This document shows, piece by piece, positions 2,028 to 60,600 of a stretch of 64,000 nucleotides of DNA. Position numbers and translations under genes: made by a program. The first letter of the stretch is position 1. Every line of letters begins with the position of its first letter. Under the pieces are notes generated by a model that saw nothing but the letters and a program-made list of their open reading frames with translations, had not been told where the DNA came from and did not search any database. This DNA is from Leucoraja erinacea. Lineage: Eukaryota. The stretch is from NCBI RefSeq assembly GCF_028641065.1, contig NC_073396.1, positions 20,274,001-20,338,000 of the forward strand, read 5' to 3'.

Positions 2028-2900
2028 CTCTTTGGACACAGAAGAAACTGCGGATGCTGCATTATTTGTGACTGAGATTGTATGGATATTTAAGATTGTT
2101 CCTCACGTGACAATAATAAACCTATATTTAATCATGTAATCACAAGAAACTGCGGACGCCGTTTAACTAAAAAAAAATACACTGTAAGTGTTGGAGTTGG
2201 GTCAGGCAGCATCTCTGGCGAGCATCTCTGACCCGAAACATCACCAGTCCATGTCCTCTAAAGATGCTGATTGACCCGCTGAGTTACCCTAGCACGTTAT
2301 CTTTTTTGTTTGCAAAACCTAATCTCTGCTTTTCTCGGGACCCTAACAATTGCAGTCTCTTATTTCCCCATTAACTCCTCAAGCAAAATAAATGAAGTGT
2401 AATGTGAGATGGTGGAGGGGTGATTAAAACTAGGAGACCGGGAGGGGTGGGGGGGGGGGGATGAGCACAAGGAAGAAGGGGAGAATTAGTTGCACAACGT
2501 TCCCAGTCGATAGTTTGTTTCTTGTTTATATAAAGCTGACTCATCTCCGCCTCCTCCCTGTCACCAACCCTCAGCGGCAAACCATTAATCTCCTGGAGCA
2601 GAATAAATGGATTGCGACAGGGCGAGGGGGGAGCGATGAGCAATTTGCAACGTTATTTACTGCTGCTGCTGCTGCAAACCAAAGGTCGCTGGCTCGCCTG
2701 GTCTGTCTGATTTTAAGGTGGTTTTTCTCTTGCCCACACCTTGGTCAATACCAAAGATCTTTGGTCAATACAAGGGGGACGGTGACACGAGGAGCAAAAA
2801 AACGCAAACTGCAGATGTTTTGGGGGGAGATGCAGCAGATGTGAGTGGGTTGCATTGGTACAGAGCTCTGCTGCTGTCCGCACGCTACCTTAAAACCCTG

Positions 2901-15262: not shown

Positions 15263-18116
15263 TTGCTGGGCACACTGGGACTGCAGGGTGGGGCCAAATG
15301 GGAGGAAATAAGAGGAGGGCAGGGTTTCCGCTTCCGTGCGGTGCTGCTGCAAGGTGCAGGTAACCCCGCCCCACCTGCTGCAATGAATGCACTGGACTGT
15401 GCTTTTGCATTGGGAAGTGTGGGTCCACAGCTAACTACCAGCTACCCACCTGCCATTGTGAATTTGTTTCATTCCAACGTTTTGGGCCGAAACCCTTCTT
15501 CAAGAGAAAAGCTTTTGTTTGCATGCTCTTCAATTAAATCAGAACATGTTGTACATTAAAATATTCTCAAATCTTGGGGTTAAATAGTTTTGGGAATCTA
15601 CTTGCATTGACATTAGCAATTGAAATTCAAATTTAAAATCCAGATGCTGGAAATCTGAAATAAAAACAAAATTCTGCGGGGAAAAAACTTAGCCTGTTAA
15701 GCAGCATCTATGGAAGGAGAAACCGTAACCTTGCAAGCCAGAGACTTTCTCAGAGCAGTGAACAAGAGAAAGCAATACACAAAGTGCCGTAGGAACTCAG
15801 TGGATCAGTCAGCATCTGTGGAGGGAATGGACAGGTGATGCTTTGGGACAGGACCCTTTTTTTTTTTTTTTTGCACCTTGAAACATCCTCTGTCCATTCC
15901 CTCCATAGATGCTGCCTGACCGGCTGAGTTCCAGTTGCTTGCTTTTTTGTATTCAGAAAGCAAGTTAGTCTAAGTGTTAGAGGATCTCAGCAGGTCAGGC
16001 AGCATCTGCGGAGGGAACGGACAGACAACGTTTCAGGATGTAAGAGAAGAATGGTCCTGACCCAAAACAATCATCCGTGTGCTAACTCTTTTAGTTTTAG
16101 GTTAGTTTACTGTCACGTGTGCTGAGGCACAGTGAAAAGCTTTTTTGTTGCGTGCTATCCACAAGCAGAAAGACTGTACATGATTGCAATCGAGATATCC
16201 AGTGTACAGATACAGGATAAAGGGAATAATGTTTAGTGTAAGATAAAATCTGATTTAAGACAGTCCGAGGGTCCCCAAAGAGGTAGATGGTAGCTTAGGA
16301 CAAGGTTGGGTTACAGAGCAAGGTGCTAGGTGGGTTCAGAGTCGGTGTCAGGATATAATTGAGATTGGGTCTGTGAACATACAGTATTGGCGTTGCCTGG
16401 TTAACCTCTTCCTCCCCCTCTGCTGTCGATGACTCCTGGTACCACAACACCATTGAGGCGTACCGCGAGGAGCATAGCAAGTGGGAGATATTCGGAAAGA
16501 TGGTGATGAGCCACAGCTGGCTAAGCTGTGTCACCGTGCCGGTGCAGAAGGAGACATGGCCTGGCCGCTCGGTTGAGAACATGTTCGCAGATTGACGGGG
16601 CATTCAGCTCCGTCGCGACTCTCCCACCTTATGTGTCAACCACGGATTAGAGACTGGCCATGGGGCATCTCCAGAAGATCCACAGGTCTACCGGATGCAG
16701 GGTTACAGAAGCACTTTGGACATCATTTGCAACACTAGCAGCATTGAGATGTTAATTGGGGCAGACGTATAACCGCTGTGTAACGTTCCCTGGGGTCTGC
16801 ACGGGGTTACTGGGGTCAAGGTGACTGTGTTCCTTCCCGTCTGCTCAACCAAGGTGAAAACCATCTTCCTATGTTTCACTCGTGTGCCCTGCATCTGATT
16901 GCATTCTCCACGCACCAAAAATGGTCATCAACTAGCGTCCTCCACTGCACTGTGCAAACATCTCCCTTTTACTTCTCCGTTTTTCTATGGGACTTTCTGC
17001 TACATCCAAATGAAAACGACATGAATTGGTGGGCTAATTGGCTATTATATGCAGGTGAGAGGTAGAGAATGGGAGGAGTTGATGGGAACGTAGGGAGGGT
17101 TAGTAAAATTGGATGGCTGATGGTTGGTGTGGAGTCAGTGGGGTGAAGGGCTCGGATCCATGTTCCAAGGTGGTGCTGACAAGTTGATGCCAGATGACCC
17201 ATTTTACTAACGGGCTGCATTATAAAGCAGCAGTCGGTGAGGGAGGTTAATTGCTACTGATTTGTGTAACTCTTCACCTCCATTATCAAGCTGGTATCTT
17301 TGAGTGGGTTCTACACTTGAGTTGGGGTTTAATGTGTAATTCTCCAGCCATTGTGAGATGCACCTGAGACGTTCCTTGGTCTGCTAACTGGCAAAAGCTG
17401 CCATCATTCTCAAACATTGACATTTTGAGGGAGAACCTTCCAAATGTGATGTTTTGAGCTTCAGATTTTGTTGCACAAATAGTTTATAAAGAATGTATAA
17501 TCACAAATTTACACAATATTTTGTATGGCAGTAATGAGATGTATGACCCTATGGGTTTTTTTTAAGATAGTCACTGCTCTTGTTCAAATGTGCAAGATTT
17601 GTGTTCCAAATTATAAATAAAGTTATTGAATCATTTAATGTAAATTCTATGCCTGATCTATATAAATGTTTTACAATTGCCTTAGATTTGAAAGAGTGGA
17701 ATAATTGTGAGGTGTAGCACTTTGGAAGGTTGAATACAAGTGGAAGGTTTACAATTCATGTCAAGACTGCATTGATGTACAGAGGGATCTTGGTGTCCAA
17801 GTCCATAACTGCCTGCAAGTGGCAACACAAATGTGTTGGAGGGAATCGTAAGTCTAACCTGTAACCAGTGCCTGGTACTGTGAGGCAGCAGCTCGGGCAG
17901 CTGTGTCATTGTGCTGCAGATAAATTGAATGAGATTGATTTTGTGAGCGTCTTGAGGGATATGGAAAGGATGTGAAATTGGGGGAAGACTTCAGCCCCAA
18001 TCAGGTTGAGTGGTGCAACAGGCTCCAGGGATGAATGAACTTCTACTTCACCTGAAGCCAGATCTGTGCACGTGGCAGCATTTAAAGGCAAGTACAAAAA
18101 TGTTCAGGTCAAGCAT

Positions 18117-22099: not shown

Positions 22100-22965
22100 A
22101 GAGGGTGATGGTGAAAGGTTGTTTTTCAGGCTGGAGATCTGTGAGTAGTGTGTGTCTCAGGGATCAGTACTGGGGCCCATTGCTGTTTATGGTTTATATC
22201 AATGATTTGGATGTGAATGTACAAGGTACAATTGGTAAGTTTGCACATAACACTAAAACAGGTAGTATCATAAACTATGAATGTCCAAGCAAGCGGTGTT
22301 GCACTTTAGGTGGTCAAATACTAGGAGAAATTATACAATTAATTGTCCTTAACATTATTGATGTACAGATTAATATTGGGGTCCAAGTCTATAAGATACA
22401 AGATAATTGAAAGTAGCAACACAAGTAGACCGATTGGTAAAGCACATGGTATGCTTGCCTTCATCGGACAGGGCATTGAATATAAGGGGGGGGGGGGGGG
22501 GGGTAACCGTGTAGTCATGATTTATTGGACTTTAGTTAGGCCGCGTTTTGAATATTGTACAGTTCTAGTCATCCTGCTATTGGAAAATATTAATATGGAA
22601 AGGCTGCAGAAAAGATTTACAAGGATGTTGCCAGGGCCTGAGCTTTTGGGGGAGGTTGAGCAGGCTGGGACCTTGGAGGATAAGGGGTGATCCAGAGGAG
22701 TATAAAATCATGAGAGGAATAGATCGGGTAGATGCACAGCGCCCCTTGACCAAATTAGGGGAATCAAGAACGAGAGGACATAGGTGAGGAGGAGAAGAGA
22801 TTGAATAGGAACCTGAGGGGCAACTTTTTCCACACAGGCCTATGGCCGGAGGAGATAGGTGAGGCAGGGATCATCATTTGGCCAGGTACGTGGACATAAA
22901 GGGTTTGGAAGGATATGGGCCAAACCCAGGCAGGTGGGACTAGTGTAGATGGGACATGTTGATCG
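22100..22965 (+). mobile_element. CR1 LINE RT fragment, decayed
   Basis: GPLLFMVYINDLD...IGKFA, LVRPRFEYC, MERLQKRFTRMLPG. Confidence 0.85.
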
Positions 22966-23149
22966 GCATAAGTTTAAGGAGCAGAATTAGGCCATTCGGC
23001 CCATCGAGTCTCCTCTGCCATTCAATCATGGCGAATCTATCTTTCCTTCCTAACCCTATTCTCCTGCCTTTTCCCCATAACCCTGTACATCATGGTAGTC
23101 ACCATGGGCGGGATGGACAGTACTGTTCTGTGTTTTTGCAGCCTGCTCT

Positions 23150-23440
23150 AGGGGACCACGTTGCCGCCCTGGGCCCCGGCACAGCACCGGCCTCTCCCGC
23201 AGCGCGGAGCCGGAACACGCGGCCGACCCGTGCCGCGACCACCCCCGCTCCCAGCGCCCTCACCATCCTCTCCGCGATCCGGCCCGATACCGCTGTGCCG
23301 CCGCTTCACCGAGGAAGAGCCGCTGCCGTCTAACCAAAGATCTAACCGCGCACGGGGAAGGAGGTGCCGGACAAGAGAGCACTTCCGATACCGCAGCCCC
23401 GGGTGGCGTCACGCAGCGTCTCCTCCGGCGGCCGTCAGCA
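23150..23440 (-). promoter_or_regulatory. SNU13 CpG-island promoter
   Basis: CpG-rich; minus-strand CTCTTCCTC (23311-23319, TCT/TOP-like), ETS site CGGAAGTG (23380-23387), CRE-like TGGCGTCA (23404-23411). Confidence 0.65.
23264..23266 (-). CDS. SNU13: SNU13 coding exon 1 (ATG only)
   Basis: GAGAGGATG|GTGAGG inside the CpG island; 3+121+263 = 387 nt gives 128 aa, the known SNU13 length. Confidence 0.75.
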
Positions 23441-24242
23441 ACTGCAGCCCCCTATTCCAACCCCAACCTGGGACAGGAGCCAAGTGTCGCTGCTGCTGGA
23501 AACATCTTAATCAAAGATCTTATAGCTCCGTCTTAATGGATAGTCGGACAATGCAATCTGACCTGCAGTGATGTGGGGAGATGGCAGGAAAAAAATGTTC
23601 AAGGAAGATCAGTGATGATCTTGTTGAATGGTAACCCACTCCTTCAGAATAAAATGATGTACCTTTAGAAAGGATATGAGGATAAACTAAAATAAATCAT
23701 TATTCACTGTGATTACATATTCCGTTGTGCTGCAGCAAGTAAGAATTTAATTGTTCCATCTGGGGCATATGACAATAAAACACTCTTGACTTGAGGTGAA
23801 ATTTCTTTAGTCAGAGGGTGGTAAATCTGTGGAATTCTTTGCCACTGAAAGCTGTGCAGGGCAAGTAATTTGATATGTTCAAGGCAGAGGTAGATAGATT
23901 CTTGATTAGTACGGGTGTCAGGGGTATGGGGGAGAAGACAGGAAAATGGGTTTGAGAGGGAGAGACAGATCAGCCATGATTGAATGGCGTAGACTTGATG
24001 GGCCGAATGGTCTAATTCTGCTCCTATAATTTATGAACACACCTGCTATTTCAATGTCCTTACATTGAGTCTTTCTATTTCTCTTTATATGGAGATTCAT
24101 TAAAGCATAGATTAGTTCACAATAGAACAATTATACACTACTGTACTTGATGGAAGTGGGAAGATCTCTTGGAGCTGCTCTGCAGACATATTGAGCAAAG
24201 ATCCTGTAGGATCTTTGATATTGAGTGTCCTAACCAGATGTC

Positions 24243-24457
24243 TCGCCATATTGTGTGTATCCCGAACACGATTCTCCGCCATATTGAGTGTGTCCCGGAA
24301 CCGCCGGGCCGCCATATTGAGTGTGTCCCGGGACCGCCGGGCCGCCATATTGAGTGTGTCCCGGAACCGCCGGGCCGCCATATTGAGTGTGCCCCGGAAC
24401 CGCCGGGCCGCCATATTGAGTGTGTCCCGGAACCGCCGGGCCGCCATATTGAGTGTG
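24243..24457 (+). repeat. 33-bp tandem repeat upstream of UQCRC2
   Basis: Unit CCGCCATATTGAGTGTGTCCCGGAACCGCCGGG starts at 24276, 24309, 24342, 24375, 24408, partial at 24441, degenerate at 24243. Confidence 0.95.
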
Positions 24458-24493
24458 CACTGGGCACTGTGGCAGCGGACAGGCACGGAGACG

Positions 24494-24538
24494 ATGCGGT
24501 CGGTACGGAGGGTGAACGCTGCGCTGACAAACCTCACC
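24494..24538 (+). CDS. UQCRC2: UQCRC2 exon 1 (mitochondrial presequence)
   Basis: acgATG in CpG island; MRSVRRVNAALTNLT, Arg-rich with no acidic residues; phase-0 donor GTGAGT. Confidence 0.8.
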
Positions 24539-26388
24539 GTGAGTGTCCGCACCTTGGGGCGGGCGGTTGCCATCGCGCGGCGCCCGTGCTTTCGGGCCGC
24601 AGGCGGAGGAGAGACCGGTGACCCGGCACCGTGATCTAGGCCTGTGCCCGCCCGCCGCCGAGCACAGGATGGGTCTGCACTGCCATGACGCTGGAGCAGG
24701 CTCTCCTTCACGGCCGGCTGCTCGGCCCAGCGGGAGCCCTGGCTTGGGATAGCACCTAGCCTCTGCTTGCCGACTGAAGGTCATCGGCCCGCAGGCCGCG
24801 GCCGCCTCCAGCAGCTGCCGGCCCAACCTGTCCTTCACACTGACATTGCAGAGGTGCCCTCCCGTGGTTGTTATTCCTCTATGTACACCATATAAACTGT
24901 GATCGCAGGTGATCAGTTGAAGATTTGGTTCTTCCAAACCAAATGATAAAAATGTCATCGTTCTATCTGGGAGATATGACAATAAAACACCCTCGACTCT
25001 TGAAATGCAGACATGATATACCCTAGATGCTGCAATCTGAAGCAACAAACTGTCTCGACCGTTCGTCTGCATCCCCAGACGCTGCTCGACCCGCTGACTT
25101 CCCCCAGCAGCTCTTCTTTTTTGCTCTAGTTTCTTGTGCTTCTCCCTTCCTTGTGCCTGGCCGTATCTCGCTCCGTGTCCGTGTCGGAGGGGAGGGGGTG
25201 CAGGATGGGTGCAGGATTGTCGGAGGGGAGTGGGTGCAGGATTTTCTGGAGCTTCTTCCTAATGGCAATATTTTGTATGTTCAAAGTTAATAAGGAAGAC
25301 TAGGCAGGAATATGAAAATGATCACCTGCAGCTGAGACAAATAAAGATGGTTTGTGTGGAATTTGGTAAAATAATAGCAATATGAAGACGCCATGACCAA
25401 AGCAAAGATACTAGAGCGGAGACGGAAGCCGGTTACGGAAATGGTGCTAAAGATTACCCATGACCTACTACGACTTTTTCGTCGAGTGGACTATCTAGGA
25501 TCTTTGTGCTCTTCCATACCTCTAGTTTTCCCTCTCCCGTCTCAGTCTGAAGAAGGGTTTCGACCCGAAACGTCACCCATTTCTTCTCTCCAGCGATGCT
25601 GCTTGTCCCGCTGAGTTACTCCAGCATTTTGTGTCTATCTTTAGTGTGAACCAGCATCTGTAGTTTCTTCATACACACTGTAGTTATTTACCTCATTTAT
25701 GCCCCTCATGATTTCATACACCTCTATAAGGTCGCCTGCACGCCAGGGAGAAATGTCCTAGCCTATCCAGCCTCTTCTCTACACAAACAGTTGAGGCAAC
25801 CTCTTCATAAATCTTTTATAGCATTCTTTCCCATTTTATGACTTCCTTCCTATATCGAGGTGTTGGTATTTATTATTGTCACATATACCAGGAAACAATA
25901 GAAAATCTTTGTTTTGCGTGCTCACGGAAAATCTTACTATACATGTGTATAATCAAGGTGGTGTAAAAGAGAGAGACACCGAGTGTAGAACATAGTGTTA
26001 CAGCTACAGATAAAGTGAAGATTTTAAAGCCTGCCACGTTGATTGGGAGATCAGAATCAGATTACAGCAGGAAAGAAGTTTGGGTGAAAATTATTTTCCT
26101 CACCAATCTGTTAATTATCCTCAACGACGGTGTTTTAGATATTTAGTCTTAGTTACAGTCTAAGTAGGAATATATGATTTAATTTAGAGATACGGTGTGG
26201 AAACAGGCCATTTGGCCCACCGTGTCCGTGCAGACCAGCGGTCACCCGTTCACACTAGTTCTATCCTGGACACTAGGGACAGTTTACAGAAGCCAATTAA
26301 CCTACAAACCTACATGTTTTGGGGATGTGGGAGGAAACCTTTCAGGGGCCCTCAATCCATGCTGACTCTTGTGAATTTTTTATTTCAG

Positions 26389-26472
26389 GCAGCGAGGTTT
26401 TACTCTGCCAGACTCGCGCCCAGGAGTGAGTTTGCAGCGGATGTGGAGAAACTCCCACCTCAGGAGCCAGAG
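26389..26472 (+). CDS. UQCRC2: UQCRC2 exon 2
   Basis: TTTCAG|GCA; AARFYSARLAPRSEFAADVEKLPPQEPE; 84 nt; donor GTCAGT. Confidence 0.88.
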
Positions 26473-27786
26473 GTCAGTGATCACAGGCGCAGCTGAAGTG
26501 TGCTTACCCCATTCTTGAAGGTGTGCCCACGTGGAACAGATTGTCTGAAGGCCATGGGTTTATGTAGCAGTGTGCCAGGCACCACTGAGCCTGCACCTCC
26601 TCTTACTGCTGTCTAAATCATTCATTCAGCAAGCTGTGCATGACTTGAATATATGCACCATTTTAAATGCTGTAATTGGGATCTGAGTATGGATGGTCTG
26701 GGCTTCTCAGTGTGTCAGTTCACTGACCAGGTCAGTAACTGTGGGTGTATCTGTTGGCAGCCCTGATTTGTCCTGGTCTTTTCTTGTTTCCAGTCCCCCC
26801 CCAAACAATCGGTCGGAAGAAGGGTCCCGACCCTAAACGTCACCTATTCATTTTCTCCAGAGACGCTGCCTGTTACTCCAGCAATTGTGCCTAAAGTGGA
26901 GATTGACAGGCTCTTGATTAGTAAGGGTGTCATTAAGGTTATGGAGATAAGGCAGGAGAATGGGGTTGAGAGGGAAAGACAGATCAGCCATGATTTAATG
27001 GCAGAATAGACGATGAGCCAAACTGTGACCTGTTGACCGGAAAGTTTAACTCGGCAGCTTAGCTTGGTACGTACATGTTGTTTGATCATTGGGAAAACTT
27101 CAGAGACGCAAGGAACTGCTGGAATCCTGAGCAGAATAAAAGAGTGAGTGCTGGAGTAACTCAGCATGGAAAAGTTGTTTGTGCTTGTTTGTGGACACAA
27201 GGAATTGCAGAATGTGGAATCTTGCATAGAAAACAAAGTGCTGGAGTAACTCAGCGGATCATGCAGCATCTATGGACGACATTCATGGCGACGTTCTGGG
27301 TCAGGACCTTGTCTCTGAAGAAGAGTCCCGACCCAAAAAATTGCCTATCCATTCCATTCTCAGTATTGTACTGTAACAGTCCCAGAGAGAAAGTCCAATG
27401 TTGGCAGTGACGTATGTCGGAAAATCGGACTGTACCCTAGCTTATGGATGGACTGTGCAGAAGCCTGACAACAGAGAGGAAGAAGCTGTTCCTGAGTCTG
27501 CTGGTGCTGGACAGGAGCGGGGTGAAGAGAGAATGACCAGAGTGGTTCTTCATTATAATAGTTACTTTCACGAGGCAGCATAAAGTGTAGATGGAGTCAA
27601 TGATGGAGTTGGGGTATCTGGTATGTGTGGCGGAATAAGTTTACGATTCTGCATGCATTTTCTTGCAGAAATAAAAGATGCAACTAAAAATCATGACAAT
27701 GATTTTAAAGAAATATATAGGATATAGCATTCAGCATTTCATATGGATAATGGCGTCTTTATGTTAATTAAATGTTTCTCTTGCAG

Positions 27787-30173: not shown

Positions 30174-31050
30174 TATTGCCCTCCAAAATGTTTGGGACAA
30201 AGACCCATGATTTATTTATTTGCCTTTGTACTCCACAATTTGAGATTTATAATAGAAAAAATCAGATGCGGTTAAAGTGCACATTGTCAGATTCTATTAA
30301 AGGATATTTTTATACATTTTGGTTTAATCATGTAGAAATTACAGCTGTGTTTATGTACAGCTTACGTACAGTTTATGCACCCCCCATTTCAGGGCACCAT
30401 AATGTTTGGGACATGGCTTCACAGGTGTTTGTAATTGCTCAGGTGTGTTCAACTGCCTCCTTAATGTAGGTATAAGAGAACTCTAGCACCTAGTCTGCAT
30501 CCTGGGGACATGAACATTGAATTCTCCCAATTTTGTTAGCCCTTGCTGTCTCCTCCCCTTCCTCAGCCCTCGGGCTGTCTCCTCCCATCCCTCAGCCTTC
30601 GGCTCCTCCTCCTTTTTCCTTTCTTCTCCCCGCCCCCCACCTCCCATCAGTCTGAAGAAGGGTTTTGGCCCGAAACGTTGCCTATTTCCTTCGCTCCATA
30701 GATGCTGCTGCAACCGCTGAGTTTCTCCAGCATTTTTGTGTACCTTTGATTTTCCAGCATCTGCAGTTCCTTCTTAAACACGAAATACTAAACATGACTA
30801 CTTTCATCTACATGACATTGCTGTGTCCCAAACATAATGGTGCCCTGAAATGGGGGGGGACTATGTATAAACACTGCTGTAATTTCTGCATGGTGAAACT
30901 AAAATGTATAAAAATGGCCTTTATTAAAATCTGACAATGTGCACTTTAACCACATGTGATTTTTTTTTCTATTAGAAAACTCAAATTGAGGAGAACAAAG
31001 GCACATAAATAAATGATGGGTCTTTGTCCCAAACATTATGGATGGTACTG
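30174..31050. mobile_element. Tc1-family non-autonomous element (IR/DR TIRs) with a Penelope fragment at about 30494-30780
   Basis: TIRs of about 230 bp with ATGTTTGGGACA repeats at both ends, matching the 36974-39069 element; ends ...ACTG|TA. Confidence 0.85.
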
Positions 31051-36973: not shown

Positions 36974-39069
36974 TGCCCTCCATAATGTTTGGGACAGACC
37001 CGTCGTTTATTTATTTGCCCCTGTAATCCACAATTTGAGATTTGTAATAGAAAACCACATCACATGTGGTTAAAGTGCAATTTTATTTTATTAAAGGGTA
37101 TTTTTATACATTTTGGTTTCACCATGTAGAAATTACAGCTGTGTTTATACATAGCTGTGTTTATTTCATGAGTACCGACTGGTGGCCCTCACCTCGGTAG
37201 TCATGAAATGCTTAGAGAGGTTGATCAAGAACCATATCTGCGCCTTCCTCCCTCGCAACATGGACCCGCTACAGTTCGCATACCGTCCAAACAGATCCAC
37301 GGACGATGCGGTCTCCCAGGTTCTGCACACCGTTCTCTCTCACCTTGACAGCCAGATGGGGGGGGGGGGGGGGGGGGGGGGGGGGCTACGTGAGGATGCT
37401 GTTCATTTACTTCGGTTCAGCCTTCAATACGATAGTCTCCCACCAGACCTGCTGAGAAGCTGCTGGAATTGGGGCTTAACACTCCCCTGTGTGCCTGGGT
37501 CCTGGACTTTCTCACCGCCAGGCCCCAGGTAGTCAAGGTGGGAAGAAATACATCAAACACCCTCACCCTGAACACAGGATCCCCCCCCCAGGGTTGCATC
37601 CTCAGCCTCCTATTGTACTCCTTGTACACAAGACTGTGTGGCCAGGTTCAGCTCCAACTTTATAATCAAGTTTGCTGATGACACTGTGGTGGTGGGCCTG
37701 ATCTCCGATAATAATGAGAAGGCCTACTGGGAGGAGGTGGCTGATCTGGCACTCTGGTGTCAGGACAACAGCCTCCTCTTGAATGTCATAAAAACTAACG
37801 AGCTGATTGTGGTATTGGGGGCTAGTTTTGGTGGCCCTTCAGTTTTCTCTTCAGCAAATAAAAGGCATGCTCAATTGGGTTCAGATCAGGTGATTGACTT
37901 GCCCACTGATGAATTGACCATTTTTTAGCTTTGAAAAACTCCATTGTTGCTTTAGCAGTATGTTTGCGATCATTGTCTAGCTGTAGAATGAACTGCCGGC
38001 CATTGAGTTTTGAGGCATTTGTTTGAACTTGAGCAGATAGGATGTGTCTAAACACTTCAGAATTCATTGTGCTACTACCATCAGCAGTTGTATCATCAAT
38101 GAAGATAAGTGAGCCAGTACCTTCAGCAGCCATACATGCACAGGCCATAACACCCCCATCACCGTGTTTCACAGATGAGGTGGTATGCTTTGGATCTTGG
38201 GCAGTTCCTTCTCTCCTCCATACTTTGCTTTTACCATCACTCTGATATAAGAATCTTCATTTCATCTGTCCACCAGACCTTTTTCCAGAACTGTGGTTGC
38301 TCCTTTAAGTACTTCTTAGTAAACTGTAACCTGGCCATCATATTTTTGCGGCTAACCAGTGGTTTGCATCTTGCAATGTAGCCTCTGTATTTCTGTCCAT
38401 GAAGTCTTCTGCAGATAGTGGTCATTGACAAACCCACACCTGACTCCTGAATAGTGTTTCTGATCTGTCGGACAGATGTTTGGGGATTTATCTTTATTAT
38501 AGAGCGAATTCTTCTGTCAGCTGTGGAGGTCGTCCTTGGCCTGCCAGTCCCTTTGCGATTAGTAAGCTCACCAGTGCTCTCTTTCTTCTTAATGATGTTC
38601 CAAATAGTTGATTTTGGTAAGCCTAAGGTTTGCCTGATGTCTCTAACAGTTTTATTCATGTTTCTCAGTCTCATAATGGCTTATTTGACTTTCATTGGCA
38701 CAACTTTGGTCCTCATGTTGATAAACAGCAATAAAAGTTTCCAAAGGTAATGGAGAGACTGGAGGAAAGACTAGGTGCTGAGAGCTCTCTTATACCTACA
38801 TTAAGGAGGCATTTAATTACAATTACAAACGCCTGTGAAGCCATGTGTCCCAAACATTATGATGCCCTGAAATGGGGGGACTGTGTATAAACACAGCTGT
38901 AATTTCAACATGGTGAAACCAAAATGTATAAAAATACCATTTAATAAAATCTGACAATGTGCACTTTAACCACATGTGATTTTTTTTCGATTACAAATCT
39001 CAAATTGTGGAATACCGAGGCAAATAAATAAATGATGGGTCATTGTCCCAAACATTATGGAGGCGACTG
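36974..39069 (-). mobile_element. Tc1 transposon (DD34E) with disrupted transposase
   Basis: Long IR/DR TIRs; transposase from ATG 38716 with HTH (LGLPKSTIWNIIKK, GRPR), WWTDE, QLDNDRKH, SPDLNPIE and 34 residues between D and E; early stop and frameshift; TA at 39070-39071. Confidence 0.93.
37170..37815 (+). mobile_element. Rex1/Babar LINE RT fragment nested in the Tc1
   Basis: ALTSVVMKCLERL...[36 protein letters not shown]. Confidence 0.9.
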
Positions 39070-56460: not shown

Positions 56461-57039
56461 AGCAGATCAGGTGAGCCACTCACCGCTGAATACCTGCGCT
56501 TGTAGCCACGTTTCTTATGTGACTGATTCAGTCGGATTTCTGGTCAATTGTGACCCTTAGGACATTTAAATTGGAGGACTTGGAAATAGCATTGTCATGG
56601 GTGGGTTGTTATACACCCTCTTCTTAGAGATGATCATTGCAGTACTGTTAGATGTTCTCCCTCCACATCCACCCTGTCAATCCCCCTTTGGACCTCACAC
56701 TGTTGAATAAGGAATAGGACTGAGATGAAGAAAAACGTTTTCACCTAAAGAGTTGTGAATCTGTGGAATTCTCTGCCACAGAACTAAGTGGAGGTCAATT
56801 CACTGGATGTTTTCAAGAGTGAATTAGATTTAGCTCTAAGGGCTAACGGAATCAAGGGATATGGTGAAAAAGCAGGAACGGGGTACTGATTTTGGATGAT
56901 CAGCGATGATAATATTGAATGGCGGTGCCGGCTCGAAGAGCCGAATGGACTACTCCTGCACCTATTTTTCTATGTTGTTAATGTTCCAGATGAGTTACCT
57001 GACTGCATTTGAGTTCCAGAGAGGGTCCTGGCCGCTGGT

Positions 57040-57557
57040 TACAACCAGTCACCCTCCCGGGCTGTGATAGTGGGATCTTGCCATGCCGGGGCACGAGCGG
57101 GCACAGGGCGCGGAAACAACAGGTGGCGGCCGGCGGGCGCGCGCGCGCGTGACAACGACTGGGCGGACGAAGAGCGCAGGCGCGGGCGAGGGGGCAAGCT
57201 CGCGCGGCCCCGCTTGCGCGCGCGCCCCCGGTCTCCCAGCGCTGGCGGCGGCGCGCACGCAGCCGCTGCGGTTGCCGCCGAGTGAATGGCCGCCGTCCGC
57301 TAGTGAGACGCTACCGGGCACGAGCGGCTGAGACGCGGATCGGTGTCGCCTCTTCCCCCCCACCACCACCATCACCACCACGCACACACAATGGAGGGAG
57401 TAAACTGAGGGCGGGGTCGTCGAGCGAGTCCGCCGTGCTCGCTGTGAGCTGAGGGGCCGAGCCCGGGGGCCAGCTGAGGCGATGCTCCGCGGCACGGGCC
57501 GGGCGCTCGCCAGCCGCCGCCGTCTGGCTGCCGAGTGAAGGCGGCCGCGCTCCCGCC
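57040..57557 (+). promoter_or_regulatory. MOSMO CpG-island promoter and 5' leader
   Basis: Very CpG-rich, with GCGCGC runs and GC boxes, directly upstream of the MOSMO ATG. Confidence 0.75.
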
Positions 57558-57663
57558 ATGGACAAACTCACCATCATCTCAGGCTGCCTCTTCCTGGCGG
57601 CAGACATCTTCGCCATAGCCAGCCTGGCCAACCCAGACTGGATCAACACCGGGGAGTCCGCAG
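57558..57663 (+). CDS. MOSMO: MOSMO (modulator of Smoothened, C16orf52) coding exon 1; later exons not found in the window
   Basis: gccATGG; MDKLTIISGCLFLAADIFAIASLANPDWINTGESAG, nearly identical to the vertebrate MOSMO N-terminus; 106 nt; G|GTCGGT. Confidence 0.95.
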
Positions 57664-60600
57664 GTCGGTGCCGCCCCAGCTCTACCCTCACTTCTCATCC
57701 CACCCAACACCCTACCTTCATCCCATCCAGTACCCACCCTCAGCTCCTACTCTCACCCCCAACCTCAACCCAGTTCCTCCCCTTACCCATCCCACCCCCT
57801 CACCTTCGTCCCCAGCTATCCTCATCGCACCCAGCTCCTACTCACTCCCCATCTCCCACACATACCCCGCCGCTGCACTAACCTCCCCCTTACCCTGCTG
57901 CCCCGGCCATCCTCTTTTCCCACCCCGGTTATTATATTCCTCCTCCTGTCCATCCCAGCTGTCACAGCGCCCCACCATCCACTCTAGTTGTCTTATTCCT
58001 CCCCTCATCCATTCCGTGGTCATATTCCCTCATCCATGCCGTGGTCATATTCCCTCAACCCTCCCCATACTTGGCTGTCATGTCCTTCCTCCCCATTCAC
58101 CCCAGTTGTCACATGTCCCCTACATTCACCTTGGCTGCTTCCTCCCCATTCATGCCAGCAGTTCATATCCTCCCCACATCCACCCTGGATGCTCACACCT
58201 CCCTTTGCCTCTGCGCCCACCTCCCCACCTATTCATGCTGCGTTTACCTCCACCCTGTCTGTTACTACATAACCTCCCACCCTCCATGACTGTGCCATAG
58301 GTCATCCTGCTTCTGGGCATTCTTTAATCTCATTTTTATCACTCTCCAACCCACCCCAGACTCCCTCCTGTGTCCCCCAAGTCTGCCTGGCTCCTACCCT
58401 TTTGTTCACCACAATTTCCCCCATGCCAGTTTCCTCTTTGACACATAAATTAAGCTTGTTAGTGGCAATCATAACTTTTTGACCCGTCAAGTATATTTTC
58501 TCTGTTGCAACTTATGAATGTGGGGTGTTTTTTGGTGGCGGTGGGGTTAGAAGAAAATCGTGCTGTGGTGTATATATGTTGGAAAGAAACACTTCATTGG
58601 TTAGTGAAAGGACAATAAAGAGTCATTTGGTTTCAAATTTTGCAATGCCTGCTCTAATTTCAGGTTGAGAAAAAAATCCTTTGCTTTTGGATTTAGAAGG
58701 ATGTGCTGCCTATTTGTGTCGTGTAGTTGTTCAGTATATTTGTAACAAGATTTTCTTTGTTTGCATTTTAAAGCCCATCTTGTCACACTTACACATTAGC
58801 ACCTAAACTGAGTTGTAAAGTATTTCTCATTTGTATAAAAGGAACCTTCAGGCAGTCATCATAGTTGGTTGCAATTAGAGATGTGTTAGATCCCACTTTA
58901 GAAAATTAAAACCAATTGTTTTGTTTGCTGAATTTTTGAAATGCTATATTATGTAGAGGTCTGAAGGAAAACAGGAACAATTTAATAAGGTGTATATGGT
59001 ATGACTTGGATGTAACCATGCACTTGGGTGAGACCCCATAAGGATGAAATAATGCTAAATAGAGTCATAGAGTAATAGTGTGGAAACAGGCCCTTCGGCT
59101 CAACTCGCCCACACCGGCCAACAATGTCCCATCTACCCTGGTCCCACTTGTCTTCACTTGGTCCATAACCCTCCAAACATTTCTAGTCCATGTACCTGTC
59201 CAACTGTTTCTTACACGATGATATAGTCCCAGCCTCGACTACCTCCTCTGGCATCTTGTTCCATACACCCACCACCCTCTGTGTGAAAAGGTACCCCTAG
59301 GATTCCTATTGAATCTTTTCCCCTTCCCCTTGAACCTGTGTCCTTTGGTTCTCGATTCCCCTACTCTAGGTAAAAGACTCTGTATCTACCCGATCTATTC
59401 CTATCATGATTTTGTATACCTCCATTAGATCTCCCCTCATCTTCCTCCATTAGATCTCCCCTCATCTTCCTCCATGGAATAGAGACCTGCTGGATATATT
59501 TGATACTTGAATAGTTATACCAAGCATTTGAGCGGTCAGTGTGTTTGTGATTCAAAAGATGAAAAGCTAGCGTTGCTTCCTGTCTCCTGAGGATTTGGCA
59601 GTAAAATTGTTCTTAAATTTATTTGAGGAACTGGAGTTAACTGTAACTTAGAACAGATGGTGGCAGCTGATTTGTAACCCTGTGGCCTTCGGTTCAAGTA
59701 GGCTGAAGATCTTATGCAAATTTGCATGCTCCCTATTCTGGTTGTGCCCCCTATTCTGGTTTGAGTACGTAACCTAGGGTAATGAAGAGTTGCAGTTTTT
59801 CGGATGATGGACTCTGGTGCTCTCATTTTAATTTAAAAGATCCAAAGCTTCTGTGTAAAGGAAAGGAACAGATGTTCATCCCACTAACCAGATTACTTTT
59901 CTGTTTGTGTGATCTGGGGTCGCACAAATTGGCCACAAGGAATTGTCAAAAAAACAATAGCAAAGCACAAGCACACACTTTGGATTGTATTCAGGATTTG
60001 AAGGTGCTGTATAAATTAAGTTTGTATCTGGCTTCTGTTTTGCATTATTAGCAATCTCTTCCAAGCTTTTTCCATTACCACCTGTGTTCTCTACTAAGAT
60101 AATTAATGGGCTCTTGAGAGAATTGAGAAATGTTCATGCAAGTTACTGTTTTGTGCTGATATTTGGCAGGTTAAACATTGCATTAGTTCATCAGACCCAA
60201 CCCAAAACATAATCTATCCATTTCCAAAGATACTGAATGACCCGTTGAGTTATTCCAACACTTTCTGTCCTTTTGTGTAAACCAGCATCTTCAATTGTTT
60301 GGTTCGATATCATCAGTTCAGTATGCTTTTTGACTGTTAACTTATGCCAATACCATTTGGTGAAATAAGCTAATCAGCAAATGTTAATTTGTAGTAGAAA
60401 ATATCTTAATGCATCTAATGAACTTGGAGGTTAATACTGTACTGGAGCAGTTGCATTCCAAATTCTTTGGAACTAAACAGTATCCAGATTACTGATAAAT
60501 TCTGATACTGTTAACCGTTATAGATGTTAAGGTGATACTTTGTAATGTGATATAAATGCTGTTTTGTTACTGTTTTTATGTAAATAATTCCAGTACAGCT

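Follow-up and report, generated by a model that had tools for sequence, protein, structure and literature searches.

A probable P-style transposon excision footprint in the divergent SNU13/UQCRC2 promoter of the skate Leucoraja erinacea

P transposase makes a 17-nt staggered cut, produces 8-bp duplications and shows a preference for promoters (PMC7776569; PMC1592238), and the size of P target-site duplications is given as 7-8 bp (PMC7776569). At P donor sites, Chan, Yu and McVey (2010) describe two-sided remnants lying between intact duplications, with the joins at short overlaps inside the 17-nt tails, together with one-sided remnants joined into the duplication itself (PMC2895639). Among vertebrates, mobile P-type elements are described in zebrafish and a domesticated THAP9 elsewhere. 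In the hAT system Ac/Ds, the footprints described consist of flank deletions and of flank palindromes derived from hairpins (PMC5873905).

The window analyzed here is a stretch of 64,000 nucleotides of Leucoraja erinacea DNA (assembly GCF_028641065.1, contig NC_073396.1), numbered from its first letter. A scar at 24188..24225, to which no strand is assigned, lies 269 bp upstream of the UQCRC2 ATG (24494). Its three parts are the left copy of an 8-bp target-site duplication (24188..24195), recovered in a window-wide duplication scan; a 22-bp remnant (24196..24217) that appears to consist of two joined element ends, with one palindrome mismatch in two of four compared organisms (A and C) and a perfect palindrome in the other two (B and D); and the right copy of the duplication (24218..24225), in which a single base is altered in organism B. 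The original prediction of a perfect 8-bp duplication, a 22-bp remnant and 10-bp inverted arms at this position was correct in all coordinates and letters.

A blind scan of the 64-kb window for 8-bp duplications with an insert of at most 60 bp and inverted arms of at least 5 bp returned exactly two sites, at 2744 and at 24188. In 30 shuffled windows, the same scan gave four weak matches in total, with arms of at least 6 bp in one. The first 8 terminal bases are identical at the two scars, and this terminal 8-mer occurs 11 times in the window, against 2.4 occurrences expected by shuffling (maximum of 10 in 300 shuffles) and 2.7 expected under a Markov-3 model. The hairpin z-score of the 24188 scar is -5.45. 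The window scan also established that its termini are those of the 2744 scar while target and remnant length differ, as had been proposed. A duplication surrounds a short remnant of element ends at 24188, and the same ends recur at unrelated targets (2744, 23329, 23505 and 24188 in the window, foreign contigs from the comparative runs, and the metagenome contig L005). The 24188 scar is very probably a real excision footprint, one of at least four in the window.

The flanking genes place the scar, as expected, in the SNU13/UQCRC2 divergent promoter. On one side is an L7Ae-domain gene on the minus strand, with its ATG at 23266 and the L7Ae domain in the last exon; on the other is an M16-domain gene on the plus strand, with its ATG at 24494 and M16 domains in later exons. 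We take these to be SNU13 and UQCRC2, respectively, from their domains and from what is known of the proteins. The ATG that ends SNU13 exon 1 occupies 23264..23266 (minus strand), and the first coding exon of UQCRC2 spans 24494..24538 (plus strand). Elsewhere in the window, an ankyrin-SAM exon matches ANKS4B of Leucoraja erinacea with 100% identity across 98% of the exon. An Rfam search of positions 22500-26500 returned no match.

Immediately downstream of the scar is a 33-bp tandem array of 6.5 copies (24244..24457, no strand assigned), of which a degenerate upstream unit appears to have been the insertion target. The scar had been placed at the degenerate edge of this repeat, and it does sit in the array's most decayed upstream unit. 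Within the array (24244-24457), the word CGCCATATT is present in 7 copies, and the units degrade toward the scar; CGCCATATT resembles a YY1 site and is a candidate for one. The 8-mer of the duplication is the array core and its copies stand 30 bp apart, near the 33-bp period, so the duplication might be no more than the next degenerate unit and the palindrome a product of chance. The probability of this is close to nil. When the 22-bp insert was aligned with the array unit spacer, 1776 of 2000 shuffles aligned equally well, indicating that the two are unrelated, while the spacer following the second 8-mer does resemble the unit spacer (only 71 of 2000 shuffles were as good). Moreover, the sequence to the left of the left 8-mer copy is unit-like, as is that to the right of the right copy, which is the pattern expected of a target duplication, and deleting 30 bases at the scar restores one decayed 33-bp unit. 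The identical terminus stands beside a different 8-mer at 2744, the palindrome is perfect in organisms B and D, and the chance expectation is about 7e-9 per window. The spacer shuffles and unit contexts rule out a tandem-repeat origin of the 22-bp insert, and the neighboring array does not fully account for the duplication. Nor is the palindrome without counterparts: the window has three further sites as well as an element of 104 bp, 3 of the 4 comparative runs gave foreign contigs, and L005 has a remnant.

The sister scar at 2744..2771 (no strand assigned) is an 8-bp duplication around a 12-bp palindrome that starts at 2752, 189 bp upstream of the ANKS4B ATG. Two further scars are one-sided and are read on the plus strand. 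The first, at 23329..23346, has 6 bp of the terminus (starting at 23335) enclosed by a 6-bp duplication; it lies 63 bp upstream of the SNU13 ATG and may belong to the SNU13 5' UTR. Organisms A and C both carry it, C with a single change at 23335. Organism D is without exactly the 12 extra bases 23329-23340, which corresponds to an empty site, although slippage loss between the 6-bp repeats could also leave this 12-bp gap; the run from B does not cover the position. The second, at 23505..23537, has 19 bp of terminus-like sequence (starting at 23512) flanked by a 7-bp duplication and is present in A, C and D. Runs X1 and X19 have raised depth at 23500-23539, which suggests that copies of this scar exist elsewhere. 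Because 3% of random positions are followed by a repeat of at least 6 bp, the one-sided scars are weaker evidence when taken alone. Five-base starts of the terminus are accompanied by a nearby 6-7-bp repeat in 10 of 186 cases, 6 of which come from the four scars; the matches of this kind at 15845, 40909, 43271 and 51331 were set aside as background level.

A longer relative in the window is a MITE-like element of 104 bp at 25403..25506 (no strand assigned), in UQCRC2 intron 1, which has a related terminus and 13-bp inverted ends with 12 of 13 positions paired. No target duplication was found at 25403-25506. The first five terminal bases of the element are repeated just upstream of it, at 25398, and an upstream 8-mer recurs within it. 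The Anopheles P-MITEs, which are short and non-coding, with 8-bp duplications and a bias toward the 5' side of genes, offer a likeness to this element; as described, they are at least 200 bp long and mobile, whereas the skate remnants measure 6-33 bp (PMC1562414). The 104-bp element is the best seed for tracing the parent family.

CpG islands make up 9.7% of the window and contain 4 of 5 terminus sites; of 13 other sequences that match the first 7 bases, 0 lie in an island. This gives p of about 4e-4 if the sites are independent, with the limitation that three of the four island sites lie in one promoter and that the comparison was chosen after the fact. The CpG island of the fourth gene (56801-58000, near 57,500) has no terminus site. 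That island, which bears no scar with the terminus, encloses the first coding exon of a gene that, from its translation, is presumably MOSMO-like.

If excision were to leave two identical single-stranded tips on the chromosome, these could pair at any self-complementary stretch of the tip. Joining the 17-nt end of L005, an independent locus, to itself gives 50 possible products, the best of them a 22-mer with a 6-nt overlap, and this 22-mer differs from the 24188 remnant by one base, which is the base read by organisms B and D at 24206. When the end variant at 23512 is self-joined, the best of 51 products (8-nt overlap) is exactly the 12-bp remnant at 2752. The 33-bp remnant of L005 has a length of 17+17-1, that is, two 17-nt tips joined on one base. 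Remnants of 6, 12, 22 and 33 bp fit a 17-nt stagger, a small sample in which the 19-bp remnant is 2 nt over unless part of it derives from the other end. These 19 terminus-like bases at 23512, being more than 17, count against a P-style account, and any deletion between inverted ends, not just one that follows a P-type cut, would be expected to join at internal palindromes.

We read the locus as the P-style excision footprint of a cut-and-paste transposon that duplicates 8 bp on insertion, a full account to which we assign a probability of about 0.68. A longer element would have inserted into open promoter chromatin, duplicating 8 bp of the target. It would then have been excised by a P-style staggered cut within its inverted repeats, at about 15-17 nt, leaving the single-stranded tips of both element ends on the chromosome. 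The two tips would then have paired through the 6-base self-complementary word that each contains, and the junction would have been sealed, probably by microhomology-mediated end joining. An A-to-G change at 24206 would have followed later in the lineage of organisms A and C, and such events would have built up a genome-wide family of scars of the order of 10^3.

As at Drosophila P{wa} junctions, the skate 8-bp duplications are intact and the joins fall at short overlaps within the tails; Drosophila P excision retains up to 17 nt per end, to which the skate remnants may be likened, and the one-sided join at 23329 resembles the one-sided Drosophila joins into the duplication (PMC2895639). Unlike Drosophila P, the skate terminus has a different sequence, and its scars are natural, fixed germline events in a vertebrate rather than induced ones. 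It also differs in containing internal palindromes of 4-8 nt, so that a few perfect-palindrome products would be expected to dominate. Zebrafish Pdre/zfTHAP9 is a vertebrate P-type system with 13-bp inverted ends that start with CA and with 8-bp duplications, as in the skate (PMC10983969). The terminus of zebrafish Pdre2 and that of the skate have only the first two bases in common, and zfTHAP9 excisions in cell assays are described with larger flank deletions, unlike the skate scars (PMC10983969).

Both two-sided scars have an 8-bp duplication, within the 7-8 bp of P elements, and the ends are CA...TG with short inverted repeats. Such ends are common to hAT and not diagnostic, and 8-bp duplications combined with CA...TG ends suit hAT as well as P. 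It is possible, though unlikely, that the insertion was the same but due to another superfamily with 8-bp duplications, hAT being the most likely, and that the remnant is an extreme internal deletion. It might have been produced by clean excision, sister-chromatid copying aborted after 10-20 bases per side and a microhomology join, or else by the collapse of a hairpin-forming MITE in replication. Two lengths in excess of a 17-nt tail, 104 bp for the element at 25403 and 19 nt for the remnant at 23512, favor such a deletion, as does the microhomology-mediated miniaturization reportedly known for mariner MITEs. Against it, all five short remnants (6, 12, 19, 22 and 33 bp) fall below a 34-bp ceiling, the two-sided remnants are exactly the best self-annealing products, and aborted copying gives no reason for stopping so short so often.

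The character of hAT footprints bears on the same choice. The 8-bp duplication is found here as expected for hAT, and matches the one at Ds (PMC5873905). The Ac/Ds likeness extends to a palindromic footprint, but the hAT palindromes described are made of flanking host DNA between damaged duplications, whereas the skate palindrome is element sequence and is constant across unrelated targets (PMC5873905). The usual hAT footprints are described as being without element ends (PMC5873905), and the standard form, with no ends and a damaged duplication, is not what the skate scars display: the ends are kept and the duplications are intact. Another way to explain an intact duplication with seemingly many identical copies is that the 22-bp palindrome, as a mobile micro-element in its own right, was inserted in its present form by a transposase acting in trans. 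This is very improbable, since remnants of 6, 12, 19, 22 and 33 bp that have one terminus look like repair products rather than one mobile unit, and P ends are described as requiring of the order of 100 bp for movement (PMC1562414).

A source for the scars was sought in the window and in outside collections. Among the 85 window ORFs of at least 110 aa, Pfam identified no P or hAT domain in any; the only matches were to ankyrin/SAM domains, RT fragments and a Tc1 transposase. The latter was rejected as the source of the scars because the ends of the Tc1-like element differ. This element lies in a UQCRC2 intron at ~37061-38978, with inverted ends and a transposase in two frames (HTH_Tnp_Tc3_2, DDE_3), and a non-LTR fragment (RVT_1 at 37155-37529) apparently lies inside it. 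The nested inverted repeats at 30277-30944 and 30398-30839 resemble the ends of the element at 37061 and are probably a deleted copy.

In viral contigs, three search patterns returned 0, 0 and 106 loci, none of the 106 having paired ends with a duplication matching at 5 or more of 8 positions; prokaryote genomes gave 0 and 4 loci, and no duplication accompanied any of the 4. The metagenome scan returned 8 loci, of which 7 were without a partner end and were taken as chance. The one retained, L005, is an AT-rich contig with an Ig-like exon; it has a 33-bp remnant with 15-bp arms (15+3+15) and the scar terminus, and no clean duplication. The two strands of this remnant agree with the sequences at 25403 and 23512, in each case at 17 of 19 bases. 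The same contig contains a near-perfect palindrome of ~110 bp at ~777-885, whose inner start has the 8 bases of the zebrafish Pdre2 end, which may be chance. The perfect form of the skate 22-bp palindrome also occurs, with no target duplication, at 5001-5022 of L116, a GC-rich bacterial MAG. Given this 22-mer and the absence of a clean duplication at the L005 remnant, a palindrome alone is poor proof.

A literature search for the terminus sequence returned only unrelated matches, probably primers, and no report of P-type elements or footprints in skates or sharks was found in the open literature. Repbase, Dfam, closed journals, figures or supplements may already list a family with these ends. 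The ends of 1360/Hoppel and of some mosquito P elements may have the same first few bases as the scar terminus, a likeness that was not counted as evidence. As no parent element or transposase was found in the window ORFs or in the scanned viral, prokaryote and metagenome collections, the assignment of the scar ends to the P superfamily is one that we infer. Thus, of the original description as a P-like footprint, the footprint is well supported, and "P-like" holds for the type of junction only.

Comparative data came from one run for each of organisms A-D (4 of 24 runs, covering 23100-24275). Divergence from the window is 0-0.2% for organism A, ~1% for C and 1.7-2.8% for B and D. The 24188 scar is present without a gap in all four. 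Position 24206 is A in B and D, where it makes the 22-mer a perfect palindrome, and G in A and C. B and D likewise agree with each other at 23214 and 24129, and G at 24206 is therefore likely the derived state. Little skate heterozygosity is 1.6% (PMC10115646), close to the 0.8-2.8% that separates these organisms, and an absolute dating of the scar was accordingly abandoned. Neither an empty nor a filled allele was seen at 24188 in the 4 runs, a sample of one per organism that rare alleles would escape. The suggested search for such alleles succeeded in part, yielding an empty allele at the neighboring 23329 (organism D) and none at 24188 in the four organisms; an orthologous site lacking the insert was found in 1 of 3 covering runs at 23329 and in 0 of 4 at 24188. 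At 23451-23456, organism D has a 6-bp gap in a short tandem-like tract, so small slippage-type differences do occur in this promoter.

Besides the orthologous contig, short foreign contigs aligned to the scar in three of the organisms (two in B, one in C and one in D), while organism A had no such contig. The foreign contigs carry A at 24206, and their aligned part, the extent of which was deduced from binned depth, is about 24189-24226, corresponding to duplication, palindrome and duplication. One such match would require ~1,300 copies if copies are flanked by a duplication, versus ~1.9 million if unflanked, when target preference is ignored. This points indirectly to scar copies elsewhere in the genome, probably in numbers of the rough order of 10^3, although the foreign contigs need not represent unrelated loci and could have their origin in similar array units or in paralogous promoters.

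Conservation of the scar might also be functional. Its presence in 4 of 4 organisms, within the CpG island of two housekeeping genes, would be explained if the palindrome, whatever its origin, were retained as a promoter element of SNU13/UQCRC2, as a factor site or a cruciform. We consider this improbable: there are two changes in the 38 bp of the scar among organisms only 0.8-2.8% apart, one of which disrupts the palindrome, and Rfam gave no match. These changes among such close organisms give no indication of constraint, and we regard the scar as likely neutral.

Beyond the single locus, it is possible, with rather less than an even chance, that skates have a hitherto undescribed P-superfamily transposon in common with the unrelated, invertebrate-like animal represented by L005, and that its frequent insertion into promoters open in the germline left thousands of 6-33-bp scars fixed in skate CpG islands. 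If the ends do belong to a P element, a cartilaginous-fish lineage would be added to the vertebrates with P-type elements. The scars would then allow the cut stagger to be tested genome-wide, as a length ceiling, from existing assemblies, and would also test end-joining preference (the 12-, 22- and 33-bp classes) and promoter targeting. That one housekeeping promoter has three scars within 900 bp suggests that such scars make a real contribution to the turnover of promoters. If the skate P-transposon reading is true, the scars would be natural evidence of a 17-nt staggered cut in a vertebrate. They would also form a fossil map of the chromatin that is open in the germline and represent a steady supply of small promoter and 5'-UTR insertions that is invisible to repeat annotation.
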